A DNA stretch of 64,000 nucleotides from positions 1,664,001-1,728,000 of the forward strand of contig OZ240241.1 in the NCBI GenBank assembly GCA_965198115.1, read 5' to 3'. This document shows positions 1,864-23,816 of this stretch, piece after piece. The stretch is from Candidatus Latescibacterota bacterium. Lineage in GTDB: Bacteria > Latescibacterota > UBA2968. The notes below the pieces were generated by a model. It was given only the letters and a program-made list of their open reading frames with translations, did no database searches and was not told the DNA's origin. The translations under genes and the position numbers were made by a program. How positions within the stretch are numbered: position 1 is the stretch's first letter; each line of letters opens with the position of its first letter.

Positions 1864-1925
1864 CACGGCGTTCCGACGGGGGTCGGGGCGCAACTGTAGG
1901 TCCCCTCTTACTTGGGTCGAAATCG

Positions 1926-2132
1926 ATGGATCGTGATCGTGTGCGACAACTACAATCCACAATCAGCCGACAACTTTCGCACCTCACCGGAGAGGAGGTC
2001 AAAATCACTGACTTGGAGGCCATCTATTTTGCCTCGGCCGAGCTTACGATCGCCCTCACCCGACAGTCGGGTATGAAAGGTTGCTCATGCCAGCAGAAAT
2101 CAATAACTCCGTCATTTCAGCAGCGTCCCTGA
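1926..2132 (+). CDS. Small hypothetical protein (68 aa)
   Basis: ATG 1926, MDRDRVRQLQSTISRQLSHLTGEEVKITDLEAIYF; globular-looking and immediately downstream of the sigma28-like promoters; overlaps the next ORF. Confidence 0.45.
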   Translation: MDRDRVRQLQSTISRQLSHLTGEEVKITDLEAIYFASAELTIALTRQSGMKGCSCQQKSITPSFQQRP

Positions 2133-2362
2133 CACCCCGTTCTGTCCCTCAAGGCCAGGCGGAGTTGAGGTCGCGCGACAACGCGGCGGAGGGGAACACC
2201 TCGAATCCTCAGGCCGTTCTGGCCAGCCGAAACGAGGAAGTCGTACGGGCGCCCGATCCGGGAACGAGCGGGCAGGGCGCCGAAAATCAATCTCAGCAGA
2301 ACACCTCCGCCGCCGACAGCGGCGACGGTGGAGTCGGAAACAACCTGGATGTAACGATCTAA
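2087..2362 (+). CDS. Low-complexity S/N/Q/A-rich small protein ending GVGNNLDVTI (YjfB/motility-associated-like C-terminus)
   Basis: ATG preceded by GAAAGG; disordered composition; C-terminal GNNLD motif. Confidence 0.6.
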   Translation: MPAEINNSVISAASLTPRSVPQGQAELRSRDNAAEGNTSNPQAVLASRNEEVVRAPDPGTSGQGAENQSQQNTSAADSGDGGVGNNLDVTI

Positions 2363-2510
2363 CCCGTCTATTCTGCGCAACGAATCGTTCAACGCGGCGA
2401 CCTCCTGGTCAGAGGTTCGGGGCGATTCGAAGCGACGTAATCGGTTGATTCGGTCACCGGTTACGGAAACCTCAGTCGAAGCGATTGATCACGTTTGGTA
2501 GGGTAGTGAT

Positions 2511-3490
2511 ATGCCGATCTTTGTATCGCGGTTTTCGCCTGAAAGGTCGCTCATCGGTAATTTCCTTTCTCCGCGCTCACCCGCCAGGGAAGCGCAGGAG
2601 GAGTTGGAAGCCGATCGAGAGTGGCAGCCACTGGAAACAGTGGCAACCCCGCACCGGCCGGAGACCGGGTTCAGTCTGCGAATCGTTCCACTCCCGATTC
2701 TACGACCCGATCTGCGACCGAGAACGCCGCGTCCGGGCAGGACGCACCTTCCCAGAACATCAGTGCCGACTCGCTCACGCTCCTCGATCAGCTGCGGCTC
2801 AGACGAAACGCCGCCAACCTGATCGCAGACATCCGTGAGAATACGGGATCGGCCGAACCGATCGAGGATCCTCCAGCCACAGAAGGCGACGGTGTGGTCT
2901 CAGCCGGAGCCGGTGCTCTGGCAGAGCGCCTGACGGCGCTCGTCGAGGAGCTGGCTACGGACGGTGGCGACAACGTCGTCCCGGTCGAAGCATCCTCTGA
3001 ATTGATCGAACCCGTCGCGGTCGAGAATCAAGCAGCCAGCGAAGCTGCAGCGACCGAGCGGCTCGAAGTTCTGATCGACGCGTTGCAAGCGGGCGACTCG
3101 ACGGAGGCAGGAGCCGCCGTCGTCCAACCCGCCAGCGCACCCGCGGAGTCGGTCGAGCTCGCGCCACGCGAAGTGCAGGAGCGCAGTCTGCGGCAGGATC
3201 TGCAGACGATCGCTACCGGTCTTCGCGAGGACGCCGCTATCGAGAGCCAGCGGAGTGTGGCCCAGGCTGCGCGAACAGCCGAGGCCGCAGCTCAGCGGGG
3301 TCAGCGTCAGGAGGTCCGCCAGAACCAACGGGAGATTCAGTCCCTGCAGACGGACCGACGTAGTGCCCAACAGGATGTGCAACGGGCAGACCAGGCTATC
3401 CGTCAGTTGCAGACGCGGAACACTCGGATTCAATCGAGCTCGTCGCAGCCGACGAACACGGGGAATTCACTCGACCTTCTGGCCGAATAG
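2511..3490 (+). CDS. Ala/Glu/Gln-rich protein with C-terminal coiled coil, ending TGNSLDLLAE (FlxA-like); possible frameshift near 2620
   Basis: The 289-aa ORF 2621-3490 is clearly coding. The upstream frame from ATG 2511 (MPIFVSRF...REAQEELEADRE) joins it if one G is added at GAG|GTG (~326 aa), so the true start is uncertain. Confidence 0.6.
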
Positions 3491-3593
3491 TCACCACCGG
3501 GGTTTGAGCCTGACCCGGGCCCGAAACCAGGCTCAAGACGACGCGTACATCGGAGTGGCGCTTCGTCAACGTACCTCGTCTCTCAACTAGAGC

Positions 3594-3654
3594 GGTGGTA
3601 CCGATTGGTCAGTCCCCCTTTCTCTCGGTCTTCCGAGGGGAAGGGGGGTTTTTT
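3594..3654 (+). terminator. Strong intrinsic terminator overlapping a T-box-like antiterminator
   Basis: 15-bp stem CCCCCTTTCTCTCGG-TCTT-CCGAGGGGAAGGGGG followed by T6; upstream GG-TGGTACC-GATT...AGTC-CC can form an alternative structure. Confidence 0.75.
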
Positions 3655-17370: not shown

Positions 17371-18132
17371 ATGAACGTTCTCCACATCAGATTCGGACAC
17401 TCGCTGCTCTCGACGCTCGCCAGAGCCACGCTCGTTCAGAAGCAGTTTCAACGGCTCCTGGCCGACCGGCCGACGGGTGTGCGCGTGGCGTGCCGTAGCA
17501 AGCAGCCACACGCCGACCTGAACAGCCGTTACACCGCCATCACGCTGCGGTCCGCCGGAGCCACGGCCGGAGCCATGCTCCTCTCCTTCCTCCTTTACCC
17601 GGAACACATCCCAACCGTCGGCCAGGGCACGCGAAGACCCGCCATAATTCACGTGGAACACATTCCGGAGACGGTGCAGAGAACACAGCCACCTGCCCCA
17701 CCCAGACCCGTCGTTCCGATCGCGGTCGAGGGGGACGTGCCCGACACCGTCACCATCGAACCCACAGACCTCGACCTCGATGCCATCCCCATCGACCTCT
17801 CCCTCTCCGGGCCTCCTGGAGGGGGCGGGCCCCTTTCAGACGAGCCCATGGACGCGTCCGAGATCGACTACAAACCCCACCTGCTCACGCTCATCATGCC
17901 GGCGTTTCCGAGCGAGGCCCGAAGGGACCGATTGAAATCCGGATCCGCGAAGGTCAAGCTGCTGGTCGACAAACGGGGAAAGGTCGAAAAGGTGGAGTTT
18001 GTGGATGGACCTGCGGTGTTCAGAGAGGAAGCGATCTCCACAGCCTACCGCTACCGGTTCCGCCCGGGCAAGCATCAGGGGGAAGTCAGAAAAGTGTGGA
18101 TGGAGATTTCGATACAGTTCCGATACGACTGA
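17371..18132 (+). CDS. Energy transducer TonB family protein
   Basis: KQPHADL motif, TM helix, Pro-rich PPAPPRPVVP linker, C-terminal PAFPSEA...LVDKRGKV...FRPG domain. Confidence 0.85.
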   Translation: MNVLHIRFGHSLLSTLARATLVQKQFQRLLADRPTGVRVACRSKQPHADLNSRYTAITLRSAGATAGAMLLSFLLYPEHIPTVGQGTRRPAIIHVEHIPETVQRTQPPAPPRPVVPIAVEGDVPDTVTIEPTDLDLDAIPIDLSLSGPPGGGGPLSDEPMDASEIDYKPHLLTLIMPAFPSEARRDRLKSGSAKVKLLVDKRGKVEKVEFVDGPAVFREEAISTAYRYRFRPGKHQGEVRKVWMEISIQFRYD

Positions 18133-18139
18133 AACCTCA

Positions 18140-18622
18140 CTACCCGTCGGAATCATCCGTTTTCTTCAAGGACGCGATCTGCTCGTTTGCCGCTCTCAGC
18201 CTCTTGGAGAGGACGCGCGTCATGTTGAGCACCATACTCAGGTGCGCATCACGATGTGCCTCGAAGAAAAGCCGAAGGGTTTCGAGTGGGAATTCCAGCA
18301 ACATCGCCTCGGGATCCGCCCGGACCGTCGCTGACCTCGGCAACACATCCACGAAAACCATCTCGCCAAAGAAGTCCCCGCGGCGGTGCAGCCGCGTCAA
18401 CTCGACCTTGTTCCCGTCGCCCGTCTTTTTCTCGATGACCACCTCGCCATCGTGAAGGATATACATCGATTCACCGGGCTCCCCCTCCTCCACGATCACG
18501 TTACCATCGCGGAACTGGTGAATCGCGGCCGCGCCGACGAGAGATTCCAGCTCGTCCATGTTCAGGCCGACCAGAAGTGGCGACAGGCTCAATGTATGGT
18601 AGTCGATCTCGCTCATGTTCAC
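18140..18622 (-). CDS. Stand-alone cyclic nucleotide-binding domain protein
   Basis: EGEPGESMYIL, GDFFGEM, PRSATV, LSKRLR; no HTH domain. Confidence 0.9.
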   Translation of the reverse strand: MNMSEIDYHTLSLSPLLVGLNMDELESLVGAAAIHQFRDGNVIVEEGEPGESMYILHDGEVVIEKKTGDGNKVELTRLHRRGDFFGEMVFVDVLPRSATVRADPEAMLLEFPLETLRLFFEAHRDAHLSMVLNMTRVLSKRLRAANEQIASLKKTDDSDG

Positions 18623-18626
18623 TCGT

Positions 18627-19328
18627 TCATCGACGGGTCACACCGTGTCTCAGCGTCAATTCCTGCAGCAGCACGCCGTAGGACGTCCTCAGGCTCGAAT
18701 CGAGACGAAAGGCGTGCCGGTAGGAACGAGCCGCCTCCCGATAAAAACCCTTGGCCGTCAGCACCCGCCCCAGAAGAAGGTAGTTTTCAGCGAAATCGGG
18801 CGCCAGCTCGGTAATCCGCGTGGCCATCTCGTGGGCGGTCTCGAAGTCTCGACGAGCCACGTGAATCCAAGCCTTCCCGAATCGGCTGTGGGGGTTCGTC
18901 GGATCCTTCTCCTCGGCAAGACTGTAGTAGAGGAGGGCGTTGTCGAGGTCTCCCGATCGGTGATACAGATAGCCGAGGCTCGACAGAATACCTGCATCGA
19001 GGGTGTCGATGGCCGCAACCTGCAGACCAGCCTGGATCGACTGCTCCAGGTCATCGAGGTGCAGGTAGCAACTCGCCAAGAGTCGCAGGGCTTGAAGGTG
19101 ACCCGTACGGTGAAGCAGGAAATCGCCCAACTCCGATGCGGCCGAGGCGTAATCCCCGTTTTCCATCGAAAGCCGTACACCGTCGAGACCGGGGTCGAGT
19201 ACGACTCCTGCCGTATCCGGACTCAGGTCGATGTCGGCTGGCTGTAGCAGCGCATCGAGGCCCGTCTGGGCGTATCCGGCCCCGCCGAGCAGGAGCCAAA
19301 CGAACGCCACCACGCAGAACCGACTCAT
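18627..19328 (-). CDS. Secreted tetratricopeptide repeat protein
   Basis: Signal peptide ending GYA; repeated LG.LY...G...A helical TPR pattern. Confidence 0.8.
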   Translation of the reverse strand: MSRFCVVAFVWLLLGGAGYAQTGLDALLQPADIDLSPDTAGVVLDPGLDGVRLSMENGDYASAASELGDFLLHRTGHLQALRLLASCYLHLDDLEQSIQAGLQVAAIDTLDAGILSSLGYLYHRSGDLDNALLYYSLAEEKDPTNPHSRFGKAWIHVARRDFETAHEMATRITELAPDFAENYLLLGRVLTAKGFYREAARSYRHAFRLDSSLRTSYGVLLQELTLRHGVTRR

Positions 19329-19963
19329 CCTACCACTTTCCCCTTCAGATAGAGCAACGAGTATATCCCCAGGACGCCCCCGAACCCTCCGACGACGATC
19401 ACGATGGTCGTGTTCGACAGTCCACCGAGGGTCCCGAGCACTTCTGCGTGCAGCTTGACGAACGCCTCGTTCCCGGGTTCCAGATCGAGCACCCGTTCGA
19501 TGGCTGTCCGCGCTTGGGCTTCCTCACCACGACCGTAATGAATCCGAGCAAGGTTGTAATAGGCCGTGGCGACATCCGGGGACACACGAACCGCCTGGCG
19601 ATACAGCCGCTCGGCAGCCTCCGGCTTCCCCTGTCTTTCGTAGACCGTACCGAGGTTGTTGTAGGCGTCGCCGTCCTTGGGATCCAGCTTGAGCACTTCC
19701 CGATAATACTTCTCTGCAAGGTCGTATCGTTTTTGAACAAAGCAGAGATACGCCAGATTGTAACGCGCATCTCGATGCTTGGGGTCGCGCTTGACGACCT
19801 TGAGATAGAGATCGACCGCCTTTCTCAGATCTTTCGGACGGTCGATACCCAGTTGCGCCTGCTGGGCCTGTTCGAAGAGCGCATCCGTCTCGTCAGCGTG
19901 AAGATACGCCGGGAAAAGCCCTGCCAGGGCCGACACGAAAGTAACCACCCAAACGCGGACCAA
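19325..19963 (-). CDS. TPR protein with signal peptide and C-terminal TM anchor
   Basis: ARYNLA, AYNNLG, AYYNLA repeats; hydrophobic C-terminal helix. Confidence 0.85.
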   Translation of the reverse strand: MVRVWVVTFVSALAGLFPAYLHADETDALFEQAQQAQLGIDRPKDLRKAVDLYLKVVKRDPKHRDARYNLAYLCFVQKRYDLAEKYYREVLKLDPKDGDAYNNLGTVYERQGKPEAAERLYRQAVRVSPDVATAYYNLARIHYGRGEEAQARTAIERVLDLEPGNEAFVKLHAEVLGTLGGLSNTTIVIVVGGFGGVLGIYSLLYLKGKVVG

Positions 19964-20254: not shown

Positions 20255-21367
20255 TTAGTTGTCCATCGCCCCCTGGTCGATCCAAAGCCGGACCAGCGCC
20301 AGGTCCCCACCGTTCAAAAAAGGCCCGCCCTGCGGCATCCTGTCCCCCAAAATGCCGGCTGAACCGGATATTTTCTGCATCAGGTAACTCGAGTCGGGCG
20401 ACCCGGGTGTCACACGCGGGGTCGTCGGAACCTGGGAGCTGGCCACACCGACCAGCGCCCGCCACGCCGTGTCGGCCGCCATTACCAGACCCTCCCCGGG
20501 GGGAAATCGATCGGATGCCGCGTGGCACCCGACGAACGCACAGTTTTGGTCGAACAGGGGTTGGATGTCCCGCGAAAAACCGGTCTCGGGTCGATAGGAG
20601 AAGGATTCGGACAGGGTGGCCGCACGGAGTCCGTCCGCGCCCATCACGCCGTCGATCTCGATCGTAAGAGAAACGCCCGCGGCGAGCGGCGACGTCGTCG
20701 CAGTCAGCAGGTCCGCTCCGTCGAACATCGTCGACAGAACGCTAACCTCACCCGCATCGGTCGTCACACGAACGGTTGGAATCAGAGCGGAATCGACCGC
20801 CTTCGTGAACGTGATCTGGACGCGGTCTGCCGCCGACGCGACGACGGCCCGGATATCGGGGGGCGTCGGGGGGGCTTTCGTTCGGAGCGCTCCCGCGCCG
20901 ATCCAGTCGCGGATCGCGGCGATCTCCGCAATATCCAAAGGGGGGCGCTCCAGCGGCATGCGGTCCCCAAAAGCCACGCGACCCGCGGAGTCTACGCCCT
21001 CGAGTTTCCAGATGAGCAGGCTGTTGTCGGGGTCGCCAGCGATCACCTGAGGACCGTTCCGGCTCAGAGTCGGGTCGAAGAGCTCATCGTAGCTGACCGG
21101 TGAGGTGAGATCGAGCCCGGCGTCTCTCTCGCCCACGCCTCCTGGCTCGTGGCAACCCCCCGTACACGACCGGTCGAACACATCCTGGACATCTCGATCG
21201 AAGAACGACGAGGTCCCCGACGGGGCGGCCACAATCGGTGCGGTCGTGAAGGTCTGCCGCGTTCGAACATCGCTGCAGGCCACGATCAACACGGCCAGCA
21301 CACAGATCGTCACTGGTGGCAGTAGCCGCAAAAGCCGACACCCCCCGTGCGTGTGTTGACGTGACAC
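20255..21367 (-). CDS. Lipoprotein with two atypical c-type cytochrome domains (CxxxCH, CxxxxCH) flanking an Ig-like domain
   Basis: Lipobox LIVAC. Duplicated module F.RD.Q..FD..C...CH ... SxLxxK ... GDRMP ... WI..GA (planctomycete cytochrome c-like). Start 21367, or GTG 21313 overlapping the upstream stop. Confidence 0.78.
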   Translation of the reverse strand: MSRQHTHGGCRLLRLLPPVTICVLAVLIVACSDVRTRQTFTTAPIVAAPSGTSSFFDRDVQDVFDRSCTGGCHEPGGVGERDAGLDLTSPVSYDELFDPTLSRNGPQVIAGDPDNSLLIWKLEGVDSAGRVAFGDRMPLERPPLDIAEIAAIRDWIGAGALRTKAPPTPPDIRAVVASAADRVQITFTKAVDSALIPTVRVTTDAGEVSVLSTMFDGADLLTATTSPLAAGVSLTIEIDGVMGADGLRAATLSESFSYRPETGFSRDIQPLFDQNCAFVGCHAASDRFPPGEGLVMAADTAWRALVGVASSQVPTTPRVTPGSPDSSYLMQKISGSAGILGDRMPQGGPFLNGGDLALVRLWIDQGAMDN

Positions 21368-22473
21368 GCGTAGCAGGTCGCTCCGTCATCGGTATGGAAG
21401 TCTCCTCGGCCGGCTACGTCGGCGAAGTTCACCCCGTGGGTGGCCGGGTCCGTCCCCCGGACACCATCGAAGTCCACGTGGCACTGCAGACAACTCGGGT
21501 CTGCGGCATCGACGTCGTGACAGGCGATGCATCTTTCGATGTCGCGTCGCGCCCACGATGCGTGACGCCCGCCACCCGACCCCATTCCCGCCACCCAGGG
21601 CTCCGGGTCCTGGGGCAACGGACCGTGCCAGATCGGTTTAAATCGTTCCTCCCTGTCCTCAACGCGGTGGCAATCGATGCAGTAGTCCGGTTCGTGGCAG
21701 GACTGACACCGCCGTTCCTTCCCAGCTGCGTCGAGAGGATGCAGAAATCGATAGTTGGGTTCGTGCTGTCTTTGCACCACCTGCCCGATCCTTCCCCGCG
21801 AACTCGGGGCATAAGTCGGAACCCGGTCGGTCGGACTCGACGCCTGGACCAGGAGAGCGCCGGCGTGGCAGTCCTCGCACCAACTGTCGTCGTGGCATTT
21901 TTCGCACGGCATGTCGTCGGCACGACTGTGTTGTTTGTGTTCGTAAACCCAATCCACCCGGTGAGTCTGTGGTCGAATGACCTCCACCCTGGGATGGCAG
22001 GTCTCACACACCAGCGGGGCGTCAGCGTCCTGGTGACAGGTCAGACAGTCGTCCATGATCGGCCAGTTGTGCCGGCTGGCATAGTCGGTCTCCGTCATCC
22101 CCAGGTGGCACCCCTCGCACGACAGCTGAACCGTCTCGAGATGGTACCCGTGTGGAAACTCGATCAGCCGTTCGGGACTGTCGAACGCGACCCTCTGGAC
22201 GTCGGGCCGGTGACACATTCCACACTGCGTTTCGTCCTCGACCTCGCTGTGACACGTGCCACACGTCGCTTCCTTGGGCAGAATGTTGTCACGCGATCGC
22301 GAGCTCGCAGCCGCCTCCGTATGACAGTCCACACACGTCAAGCCGTAGTCGAGCAGGTGCTCTGCGTGCGAAAAGATGATCAGGGCAGATCGATTCTGCT
22401 CGGGTATCGTCACGTGCGACCTGTCTTCGGCGTGGGCGGCCCACACCATCACAAGTGCGGTGATCAGAATCAT
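21310..22473 (-). CDS. Multiheme c-type cytochrome, 14 CxxCH motifs (387 aa)
   Basis: Signal peptide MILITALVMVWAAHA. CVDCH, CGTCH, CGMCH, CEGCH, CLTCH, CETCH, CEKCH, CEDCH, CQSCH, CIDCH, CIACH, CLQCH, CYACH, CGYCH. ATG 22473 overlaps the upstream TGA. Confidence 0.92.
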   Translation of the reverse strand: MILITALVMVWAAHAEDRSHVTIPEQNRSALIIFSHAEHLLDYGLTCVDCHTEAAASSRSRDNILPKEATCGTCHSEVEDETQCGMCHRPDVQRVAFDSPERLIEFPHGYHLETVQLSCEGCHLGMTETDYASRHNWPIMDDCLTCHQDADAPLVCETCHPRVEVIRPQTHRVDWVYEHKQHSRADDMPCEKCHDDSWCEDCHAGALLVQASSPTDRVPTYAPSSRGRIGQVVQRQHEPNYRFLHPLDAAGKERRCQSCHEPDYCIDCHRVEDREERFKPIWHGPLPQDPEPWVAGMGSGGGRHASWARRDIERCIACHDVDAADPSCLQCHVDFDGVRGTDPATHGVNFADVAGRGDFHTDDGATCYACHVNTRTGGVGFCGYCHQ

Positions 22474-23816
22474 CGAGGCCCACGCTTCGCAAAAATCCAT
22501 CCGGTCGCGCTGAAGAAGAAACGCAGATCGTGTCCGTTTCCCGGAAACGGATTCGCCCGCGTGGCCAGTTTGAGATCCTGAGAGAGATTCTGTCCTTGCA
22601 GGGTGAGGCTGAAGCGTCGCATCGGTCGAATGTGGAGACCCAGCGTCTGCGATGCGACCATCGACCGCGAGCCGCCCGCTTCGTGCGTCTTGAATCGAGT
22701 CAGATTGAAGGACGCCTCGGCCCACACGCGTTCGTGGAGTGTCTTTCGAACGACCGAGGTGACCCCGTCGGAAACGCCACCCGAGCCACGGCGTGCCACG
22801 TATCCGACGACACCGTTGAGCACCTGGGCGCCCGCGTTGAAGCGAGCTCCTCGATCGGAGGCATAGTCCACGAGACTCGCGATCCCGAAGAGCCCGAAGA
22901 AACGGTTGAACCGGTAGGTTCCGCGCAGGGAGTATTCCTGATTTCCGGCCTGGGCGAACACCGCGAAGAGACTGTTCTGGTCAACGTAGGGTGTGCGGTG
23001 TATGAAGTCCGCCGAGAGGGAGGTAGGACCGCGCTGAAAGCGGAGGACGCCCTCGACGCGACGCGTCTTCCAACCGTCCGGGATGCTCGTATCCCACCTG
23101 AAGTACCCCGAAAGTGGGCCGACCTGGCGTCGCAGATCAAGGCCGGCCATTTCCTGCTCGACTTCGCCCGGTTTGATCTCCAAAGCGGAAAGGCCCGCGG
23201 CTTCACGGTACTCTGCGCGATAGGGTTTGGCTTCTCGGCTGCGGCGGTAATAGCTCAGACCCATTGTGGTTCCCGCCAGCGTAGACAGAAACCGACCGCC
23301 GTAGATGTGGCCCTCGCTCCACGACGAGACCCCTTCTTCTCCGGCGGCCACGAGTGTACCCACGTAGAAGTCCCATTCCCCCACTCCGGAAGCGCGGCCC
23401 GATGCACGCAGGCCATCGATCCGACCGACACCCACACCCGACAGGATCGTCTGTCGCCCGAATTTCCCCACGAACCGTCGACCCGCGTCCCGATACCTCA
23501 CGAACCCGTGGTAGAGTCGGTAGGCAGGGTCGCCGCCGATGCCGGCCCTCATCTCCTTCGACATCCTTCCATAGACGTGAAGGGAGACCTCCGGGCGGCC
23601 GACGCCCATCAACCGGACGCGGCCCGTTTGGTAGACCCGGAAGGATCCAGTCGTCACCGAATCCTGAAGCGCCCGCTCGAACGTGTAGAACGCGGATGTG
23701 AACCGACCGGAAAGTGTTGTCCCCCAGACGGTTAAAGATAAAAAGTAGAGTAAACAGAGAAGGAGAAGCCCGCGGATCTGCCAGCCCGTCATCGAGTCGA
23801 ATCTCAGGAAGGTCAT
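22470..23816 (-). CDS. Putative outer-membrane beta-barrel (porin) protein
   Basis: Signal peptide; amphipathic aromatic-rich beta pattern throughout; GRQTILSGVGVGRIDGL; near-terminal FFFSATGWIF. Confidence 0.75.
   Translation of the reverse strand: MTFLRFDSMTGWQIRGLLLLCLLYFLSLTVWGTTLSGRFTSAFYTFERALQDSVTTGSFRVYQTGRVRLMGVGRPEVSLHVYGRMSKEMRAGIGGDPAYRLYHGFVRYRDAGRRFVGKFGRQTILSGVGVGRIDGLRASGRASGVGEWDFYVGTLVAAGEEGVSSWSEGHIYGGRFLSTLAGTTMGLSYYRRSREAKPYRAEYREAAGLSALEIKPGEVEQEMAGLDLRRQVGPLSGYFRWDTSIPDGWKTRRVEGVLRFQRGPTSLSADFIHRTPYVDQNSLFAVFAQAGNQEYSLRGTYRFNRFFGLFGIASLVDYASDRGARFNAGAQVLNGVVGYVARRGSGGVSDGVTSVVRKTLHERVWAEASFNLTRFKTHEAGGSRSMVASQTLGLHIRPMRRFSLTLQGQNLSQDLKLATRANPFPGNGHDLRFFFSATGWIFAKRGPR

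Follow-up and report, generated by a model that had tools for sequence, protein, structure and literature searches.

A three-gene locus of a Candidatus Latescibacterota bacterium (assembly GCA_965198115.1, contig OZ240241.1) very probably encodes an electron conduit across the outer membrane, to judge from the anatomy of its products, their linkage and their analogy with known porin-cytochrome (Pcc) complexes. The locus lies within a stretch of 64,000 nucleotides (positions 1,664,001 to 1,728,000 of the contig; hereafter the window, whose numbering we use) and comprises genes for an outer-membrane beta-barrel (gene 1, 22470-23816), an exported 14-heme c-type cytochrome (gene 2, 21310-22473) and a predicted lipoprotein (gene 3, 20255-21313). 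What is new here is the exchange of the third gene and the lack of electron-feeder genes, both overlooked in the initial annotation of the window; the core barrel-cytochrome pair has already been predicted in print. All three genes are encoded on the minus strand and overlap, as first described, in an operon-like layout: genes 1 and 2 share an ATGA (4 bp) and genes 2 and 3 a GTGA, given GTG 21313 as the start of gene 3. This start, which is the database's own gene call, yields 352 residues, and the alternative TTG at 21331, which agrees with the N-terminus of the two closest homologues, yields 358. Gene 2 is the only open reading frame in the window with more than one CxxCH. A promoter and terminator scan of the locus stayed at chance level. 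One Logan contig covers the whole stretch with 0 differences and is possibly this DNA's own source.

Gene 1 encodes 448 residues counted from the first ATG (440 from the ATG at 23792) with a signal-like N-terminus, in line with the exported, beta-rich protein of about 440 residues reported initially. Its product is predicted to be an open, wide barrel because the AlphaFold2 model, built from a 24-sequence alignment (mean predicted local distance difference test score 81.7), has 22 strands, starting at residue 34, and because its top structural matches align without their plug. Among the matches listed by Foldseek for this model there are only outer-membrane barrels. The top VIA matches are TonB-dependent receptor barrels minus the plug (Z 18.4, root-mean-square deviation (rmsd) 4.5, 371 residues aligned), and the model also matches MtrB (Z 15.7, rmsd 5.4, 359 aligned); model and matches both support the barrel first proposed. 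We rejected the identification as a TonB-dependent receptor, since the N-terminal plug is missing, with strand 1 at residue 34 and alignments that start past the plug of the receptors. Sequence searches assigned gene 1 to no NCBIfam or Pfam family (E up to 1 and 0.1, respectively), and none of 36 distant porins exceeded the cut-off in NCBIfam. A search of PDB sequences with porin profile A1 returned nothing and with profile A3 two weak barrel matches, and the ESM Atlas returned unnamed porin clusters and nothing else.

The 387-residue product of gene 2 contains exactly the 14 CxxCH motifs of the initial count, arranged as two c7-like triheme domains (residues 33-160, where PF14522 matches twice) followed by an 8-heme C-terminal part. 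Fourteen motifs are found in 117 of 120 aligned homologues. Twelve His residues outside the motifs recur in at least 119 of these sequences and M140 in 97, which agrees with the earlier suggestion that extra His residues provide distal ligands. If hemes are assigned according to the usual c7 pattern, the 12 His and M140 would account for 13 of the 14 distal ligands. Residue 68, the counterpart of M140 in the first c7 domain (alignment A2), varies (K in 51 sequences, M in 25, H in 22 and E in 20, with E here) and possibly represents a tunable or open heme site. The AlphaFold2 model is confident in residues 1-160 only, the remainder being poorly modelled; in a wide VIA search it matched only ActA (Z 6.6, rmsd 4.6, 137 aligned; Z 6.1), a match that spans residues 1-161 and does not bear on the low-confidence C-terminal half. 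A PDB sequence search likewise gave c7/ActA-type matches.

The claim that the conduit is new did not survive comparison with Ignavibacterium album JCM 16511, for which Shi, Fredrickson and Zachara (2014, PMC4245776) predicted a pcc cluster consisting of IALB_1840-1839-1838-1837; the caveat that similar clusters may have been reported in other phyla of the Fibrobacteres-Chlorobi-Bacteroidetes (FCB) lineage proved well placed. IALB_1839 is the porin (19% identical to OmbB and outside the five porin groups; Table S1), IALB_1838 the largest Pcc periplasmic cytochrome (400 residues, 14 motifs), IALB_1837 an outer-membrane cytochrome with atypical motifs and IALB_1840 a periplasmic protein (PMC4245776). 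In our data the I. album locus (L053) encodes, in order, a c554-like tetraheme protein, the porin, the 14-heme cytochrome and a 6-heme TIGR01904 lipoprotein with a CX4CH motif. Gene 1 is 25% identical to the porin of this locus over 432 residues (E 2e-23) and gene 2 is 40% identical to the cytochrome over its full length (E 8e-93), and through this homology the pair appears almost certainly orthologous to IALB_1839/1838. The features of an Ignavibacterium-type Pcc recur here, namely a porin of 18-22 strands (22 in the model) whose gene adjoins that of a cytochrome with 14 motifs, and a downstream lipoprotein cytochrome with atypical motifs, albeit of another family than the multiheme protein of the Ignavibacteria. 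This last component is variable in such complexes, typically with 1-15 motifs, of which atypical ones are common (PMC4245776). Other papers, in their accessible portions, attribute Geobacter-like Pcc porins to Melioribacter, Caldithrix and metagenome-assembled genomes of Ignavibacteria (Fortney 2018, PMC6137239; Arbour 2020, PMC7399161) and describe a seven-gene cluster (Berger 2021, PMC8258643) that may be the same as the I. album-type cluster. Neither Shi 2014 nor those portions of the other three papers contain experiments on this complex, and the IALB locus tags occur in a single paper. We found no description of the operon in Latescibacterota in literature coverage that leaves out most subscription journals and bioRxiv supplements, nor anything on this locus in the accessible parts of PMC5492636, PMC11323493, PMC10367259 and PMC8478452.

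A genome scan identified at least 527 stretches that encode a relative of gene 2, and the best 80 loci were examined for neighbours. The porin gene lies directly upstream of the cytochrome gene in 78 of them and the other two have no upstream DNA, which bears out the expected conservation of the pair. These loci are distributed among Ignavibacteriota, KSB1, Calditrichota, Kryptonia and Latescibacterota; the nearest named loci and the sole named porin homologue belong to the Latescibacterota, consistent with the FCB-lineage host proposed from the sequence. The cytochrome gene is followed by a multiheme gene in 53 loci, a di-heme gene in eight, a cut gene in one and no heme gene in 12, and the DNA ends there in the remaining six. 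Among 168 genomes of the host phylum the cytochrome is present in 24 and the di-heme type in 12, eight of which have all three genes intact. A quick porin tree, from which duplicates and split porins were omitted, places the 10 di-heme-type porins among its 85 rows on a single branch (SH-aLRT 100); being rooted at the midpoint, it says nothing on the sequence of events. In one porin clade the multiheme surface lipoprotein is replaced by an immunoglobulin (Ig)-linked di-heme lipoprotein of the His/Met type. Ratios of nonsynonymous to synonymous substitution (dN/dS) of 0.11-0.30 for the porin, 0.05-0.18 for the cytochrome and 0.12-0.69 for the lipoprotein, with several pairs near saturation, indicate purifying selection on all three genes (dN/dS below 1).

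Variations on this arrangement were also observed. Shorter 11-heme versions of the cytochrome are followed by very large partners in L107 (1-3234), where the partner has at least 33 CxxCH motifs in a gene cut by the contig end, and in L110 (2523-5537), where it has 21 CxxCH and 10 atypical motifs. Upstream of the porin in L092 (3476-6181) and L102 (2892-5666) are 9-heme proteins with cohesin and FlgD/T9SS-like C-terminal domains, which are candidate secreted cytochromes. In L016 a gene (1901-3614) for what is presumably a phosphate transporter-like protein sits between porin and cytochrome. A search of the genus around G168 gave two genomes, both with the cytochrome.

Gene 3 encodes a class-I-like monoheme domain (CX3CH...Met), an Ig-like domain and a second monoheme domain (CX4CH...Met). 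The initial reading as a lipoprotein cytochrome with two hemes holds with respect to the lipobox (IVAC) and the two heme sites, but the motifs, CTGGCH and CAFVGCH, each with a conserved Met-Pro after it, are atypical and there is no CxxCH. C50/C54/H55/M119 and C258/C263/H264 are invariant among 33 aligned homologues and M326 is conserved in at least 90%. Profile matches were weak and below cut-off (PSCyt1, CBB3 and CopC/Big_5), and a PDB sequence search gave nothing useful. Full-length homologues with the same layout (~32% identity) directly precede a monoheme cytochrome-porin fusion of ~365 residues in 71 of the 80 loci examined in metagenomes, and the remaining nine end within 350 bases; the one named homologue from this set is from Pseudomonadota, and the pairing also occurs in G049 (L200:2886-3998, minus strand). 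This two-gene unit of di-heme Ig-linked lipoprotein and monoheme-barrel fusion (L111-L190, e.g. L128:9088-10185, plus strand) has no curated family. The fusion has the consensus AEPYLAVQKGxxCxxCH...GGGKR (65 sequences), whereas Cyc2 has AxPxFAR[QK][TY] ahead of CxxCH and PxL after it (Keffer 2021, PMC8406198, as far as its accessible text goes). We did not retain an identification as Cyc2, as the spacing is Cyc2-like but FAR and PxL are missing; the likeness is one of layout only. No full-length copy of the fusion was found in the host genome.

Single heme domains of this kind occur in other settings. Matches to a Cyc2-like profile upstream of the porins of L014 and L023, and elsewhere in the host genome, proved to be monoheme-Ig-dockerin-like proteins rather than porins. 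In L014 (7524-8657) and L023 (7299-8624) the gene for such a secreted protein comes right before the porin gene; another lies at 4600955-4602346 of the host genome (G000:C1). The protein is a possible extracellular partner. Among 16 control loci with the single heme domain, one has a Cyc2-like gene and five have a similar barrel gene of ~290 residues close behind (DUF5777 in both of those scanned); in the others the domain stands alone or is fused to secreted proteins. Weak matches also point to a gene-3-like domain in Kryptonia loci (L025:8815-9963, L041:11194-12378 and L035:3734-4108).

The genes expected to feed electrons to such a conduit were sought in 27 genomes picked for carrying the cytochrome, 11 with the di-heme type only and 16 others including G079, which has both types (the loci of G150 and G074 were left out of inspection). 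A single protein query stood for each feeder, both classified by Pfam: a multiheme-cytochrome b protein from Ignavibacteria, here called CbcL-like, and a multiheme protein of the NapC/NirT type, here called ImcH-like. The CbcL-like query matched in all 16 other genomes (one weakly, 4e-17) and the ImcH-like query in 10 of them; neither matched in any of the 11 di-heme-type-only genomes. The split is seen inside one family, in which G009 and G012 have both feeders and five di-heme-type kin have neither. At the locus itself no quinol oxidase partner is adjacent, as the initial annotation had remarked. The host genome encodes few multiheme proteins, of which the gene 2 product is the largest, together with Ccm-type maturation genes. 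Its two heme-copper oxidases are located in an ACIII cluster (G000:C1:2184678-2192937) and beside Rieske/cytochrome b genes and a 1004-residue 8-heme protein (G000:C1:8138517-8148459), and its one NapC/NirT protein belongs to an nrfHA pair in which nrfA is interrupted by an insertion sequence (G000:C1:3157338-3160716).

The missing feeders, the His/Met hemes and the Cyc2-like partnership of the gene 3 family lead us to favour inward electron flow to oxygen slightly over export, although we place its likelihood somewhat below an even chance. The 14-heme cytochrome would thread the 22-strand barrel in a complex, with the 8-heme C-terminal part inside and the two c7-like domains toward the periplasm. 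The His/Met hemes of gene 3 should have more positive potentials than those of the bis-His chain, and its product could serve as a downhill acceptor on the periplasmic face, a role played elsewhere by MtoD and Cyc1. Electrons from Fe(II), Mn(II), reduced humics or another cell might then pass from gene 3 to ACIII/Rieske-cytochrome b and on to the two heme-copper oxidases. More tentatively still, a Geobacter-like export conduit may have been rewired to take up electrons in aerobic Latescibacterota, losing its quinol oxidases and the multiheme cytochrome at the surface while recruiting the di-heme lipoprotein that is elsewhere a partner of Cyc2-like cytochrome-porins.

Several observations weigh against a conduit that runs inward. 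All 11 di-heme-type-only genomes fall into one porin clade and kin are not independent, so that the absence of feeders is close to a single event; the feeders were sought with single-protein queries in genomes that are 84-100% complete. A heme-copper oxidase-family gene is present in all 27 genomes, and therefore oxygen respiration does not distinguish the two types. The partner fusion fits the Cyc2 motif in part only, and the single heme domain is widespread, being present in 104 of the phylum's 168 genomes and often having no conduit alongside. Gene 3 occupies the slot of its relatives' surface lipoprotein, and the Kryptonia multiheme Pcc lipoprotein carries a gene-3-like domain at its N-terminus (weak, 17-23 bits). 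Four of the 12 di-heme-type copies are broken by frameshifts or stops in their assemblies, and we found no experiment on any member in the literature.

Direction would follow in large part from which face of the membrane the gene 3 product resides on. If it is a surface terminal cytochrome, the locus may be an ordinary export conduit like Geobacter OmbB-OmaB-OmcB, a plausible reading that we nevertheless consider somewhat doubtful. Its acceptors would be of high potential (Mn oxides, chelated Fe(III) or humics), and NrfH, ACIII or the 8-heme Rieske/cytochrome b partner encoded elsewhere would feed it. Gene order and lipobox fit the Pcc pattern, in which a multiheme gene commonly fills the third slot, and relatives possess CbcL/ImcH-like genes; this locus, however, encodes no multiheme surface protein, no periplasmic tetraheme of the c554-like kind and neither feeder. 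The host does have a NapC/NirT protein, but its sole gene is part of the interrupted nrfHA. M. roseus reduces Fe(III), according to the accessible part of PMC6137239, and Shi 2014 found no pcc cluster in the Fe(II) oxidisers known by then, whereas I. album failed to grow with Fe(III) or Mn(IV) oxides (both PMC4245776).

A conduit outside energy metabolism, serving to mobilise metals reductively for uptake, to detoxify, to sense redox state or to supply secreted enzymes with electrons, is unlikely. The stand-alone operon in a cytochrome-poor heterotroph would suit it, as would the fusion of the same monoheme domain to dockerin-like proteins (encoded right before the porin in L014 and L023) or its position before DUF5777 barrels, and 2 kb downstream the opposite strand carries a TonB C-terminal gene; yet genes for metal transport or sensing are missing from the operon, TonB gating would need a plug that the barrel lacks and all 14 hemes are kept. 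It is very improbable that there is no conduit at all, the barrel and cytochrome being co-transcribed yet separate or the module a decaying relic. The poorly modelled half of the cytochrome, the broken copies and the patchy distribution point that way, but adjacency is near-invariant in several phyla, the genes overlap translationally, ligands are conserved, dN/dS is well below 1 and the window copy is intact.

The locus speaks to the question of what determines the direction of flow in porin-cytochrome conduits. One core pair is found with two wirings, sometimes inside one family or one genome (G079): in the first it is accompanied by quinol oxidases and a multiheme lipoprotein, in the second the His/Met di-heme protein is its sole companion. 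This amounts to a swap experiment made by nature, in a compact cassette of 3.6 kb; the cultured Ignavibacteria Stygiobacter electus and Rosettibacter primus carry the quinol-oxidase/multiheme wiring. Inward flow would mean an unrecognised energy route from extracellular donors for Latescibacterota heterotrophs, and outward flow a modest range extension of the 2014 prediction. If the rewiring is correct, this would be the first Pcc-type complex for oxidising donors outside the cell, and the di-heme lipoprotein would be an acceptor module that conduits can exchange and that marks those running inward.

The neighbouring genes are unrelated, comprising TPR, cNMP-binding and TonB C-terminal genes downstream and FapA-like and dockerin-like genes upstream. 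The TPR-TPR-cNMP-binding genes with the opposed TonB C-terminal gene (17371-19963) also follow the operon in several di-heme-type loci.

Among known systems, the I. album complex shares with this locus the porin, the periplasmic 14-heme cytochrome of about 400 residues and a lipoprotein cytochrome with atypical motifs. It differs in phylum and in its upstream c554-like tetraheme; the third gene here is a di-heme, Ig-linked protein rather than a TIGR01904-type multiheme one, and the host genome has no CbcL/ImcH-like match. The Geobacter sulfurreducens complexes (OmbB-OmaB-OmcB and ExtBCD) similarly combine a small porin of 18-22 predicted strands, a periplasmic multiheme cytochrome and a lipoprotein cytochrome in clustered genes (PMC4245776), but with eight hemes in the periplasmic protein against 14 here and 12 in the lipoprotein against two. 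Cyc2 with its periplasmic acceptor (PMC8406198, in its accessible part) resembles the locus in that gene 3 homologues directly precede a monoheme-barrel fusion with Cyc2-like spacing, although the likeness runs through the gene 3 family alone. MtrAB, MtoAB-MtoD and PioAB share the cytochrome-in-barrel principle and the structural match to MtrB, but the barrel here has ~410 mature residues against 649. The proposed difference from MtrAB is upheld: gene 1 does not match the MtrB/PioB-family profile TIGR03509 (~650 residues) nor gene 2 the DmsE/MtrA-family profile TIGR03508, being a 14-heme protein with c7-like domains rather than a decaheme one. A TIGR03509 search of the host genome gave 0 matches, as did the controls, and is therefore uninformative. 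MtoAB together with a class I cytochrome resembles the inward model proposed here.

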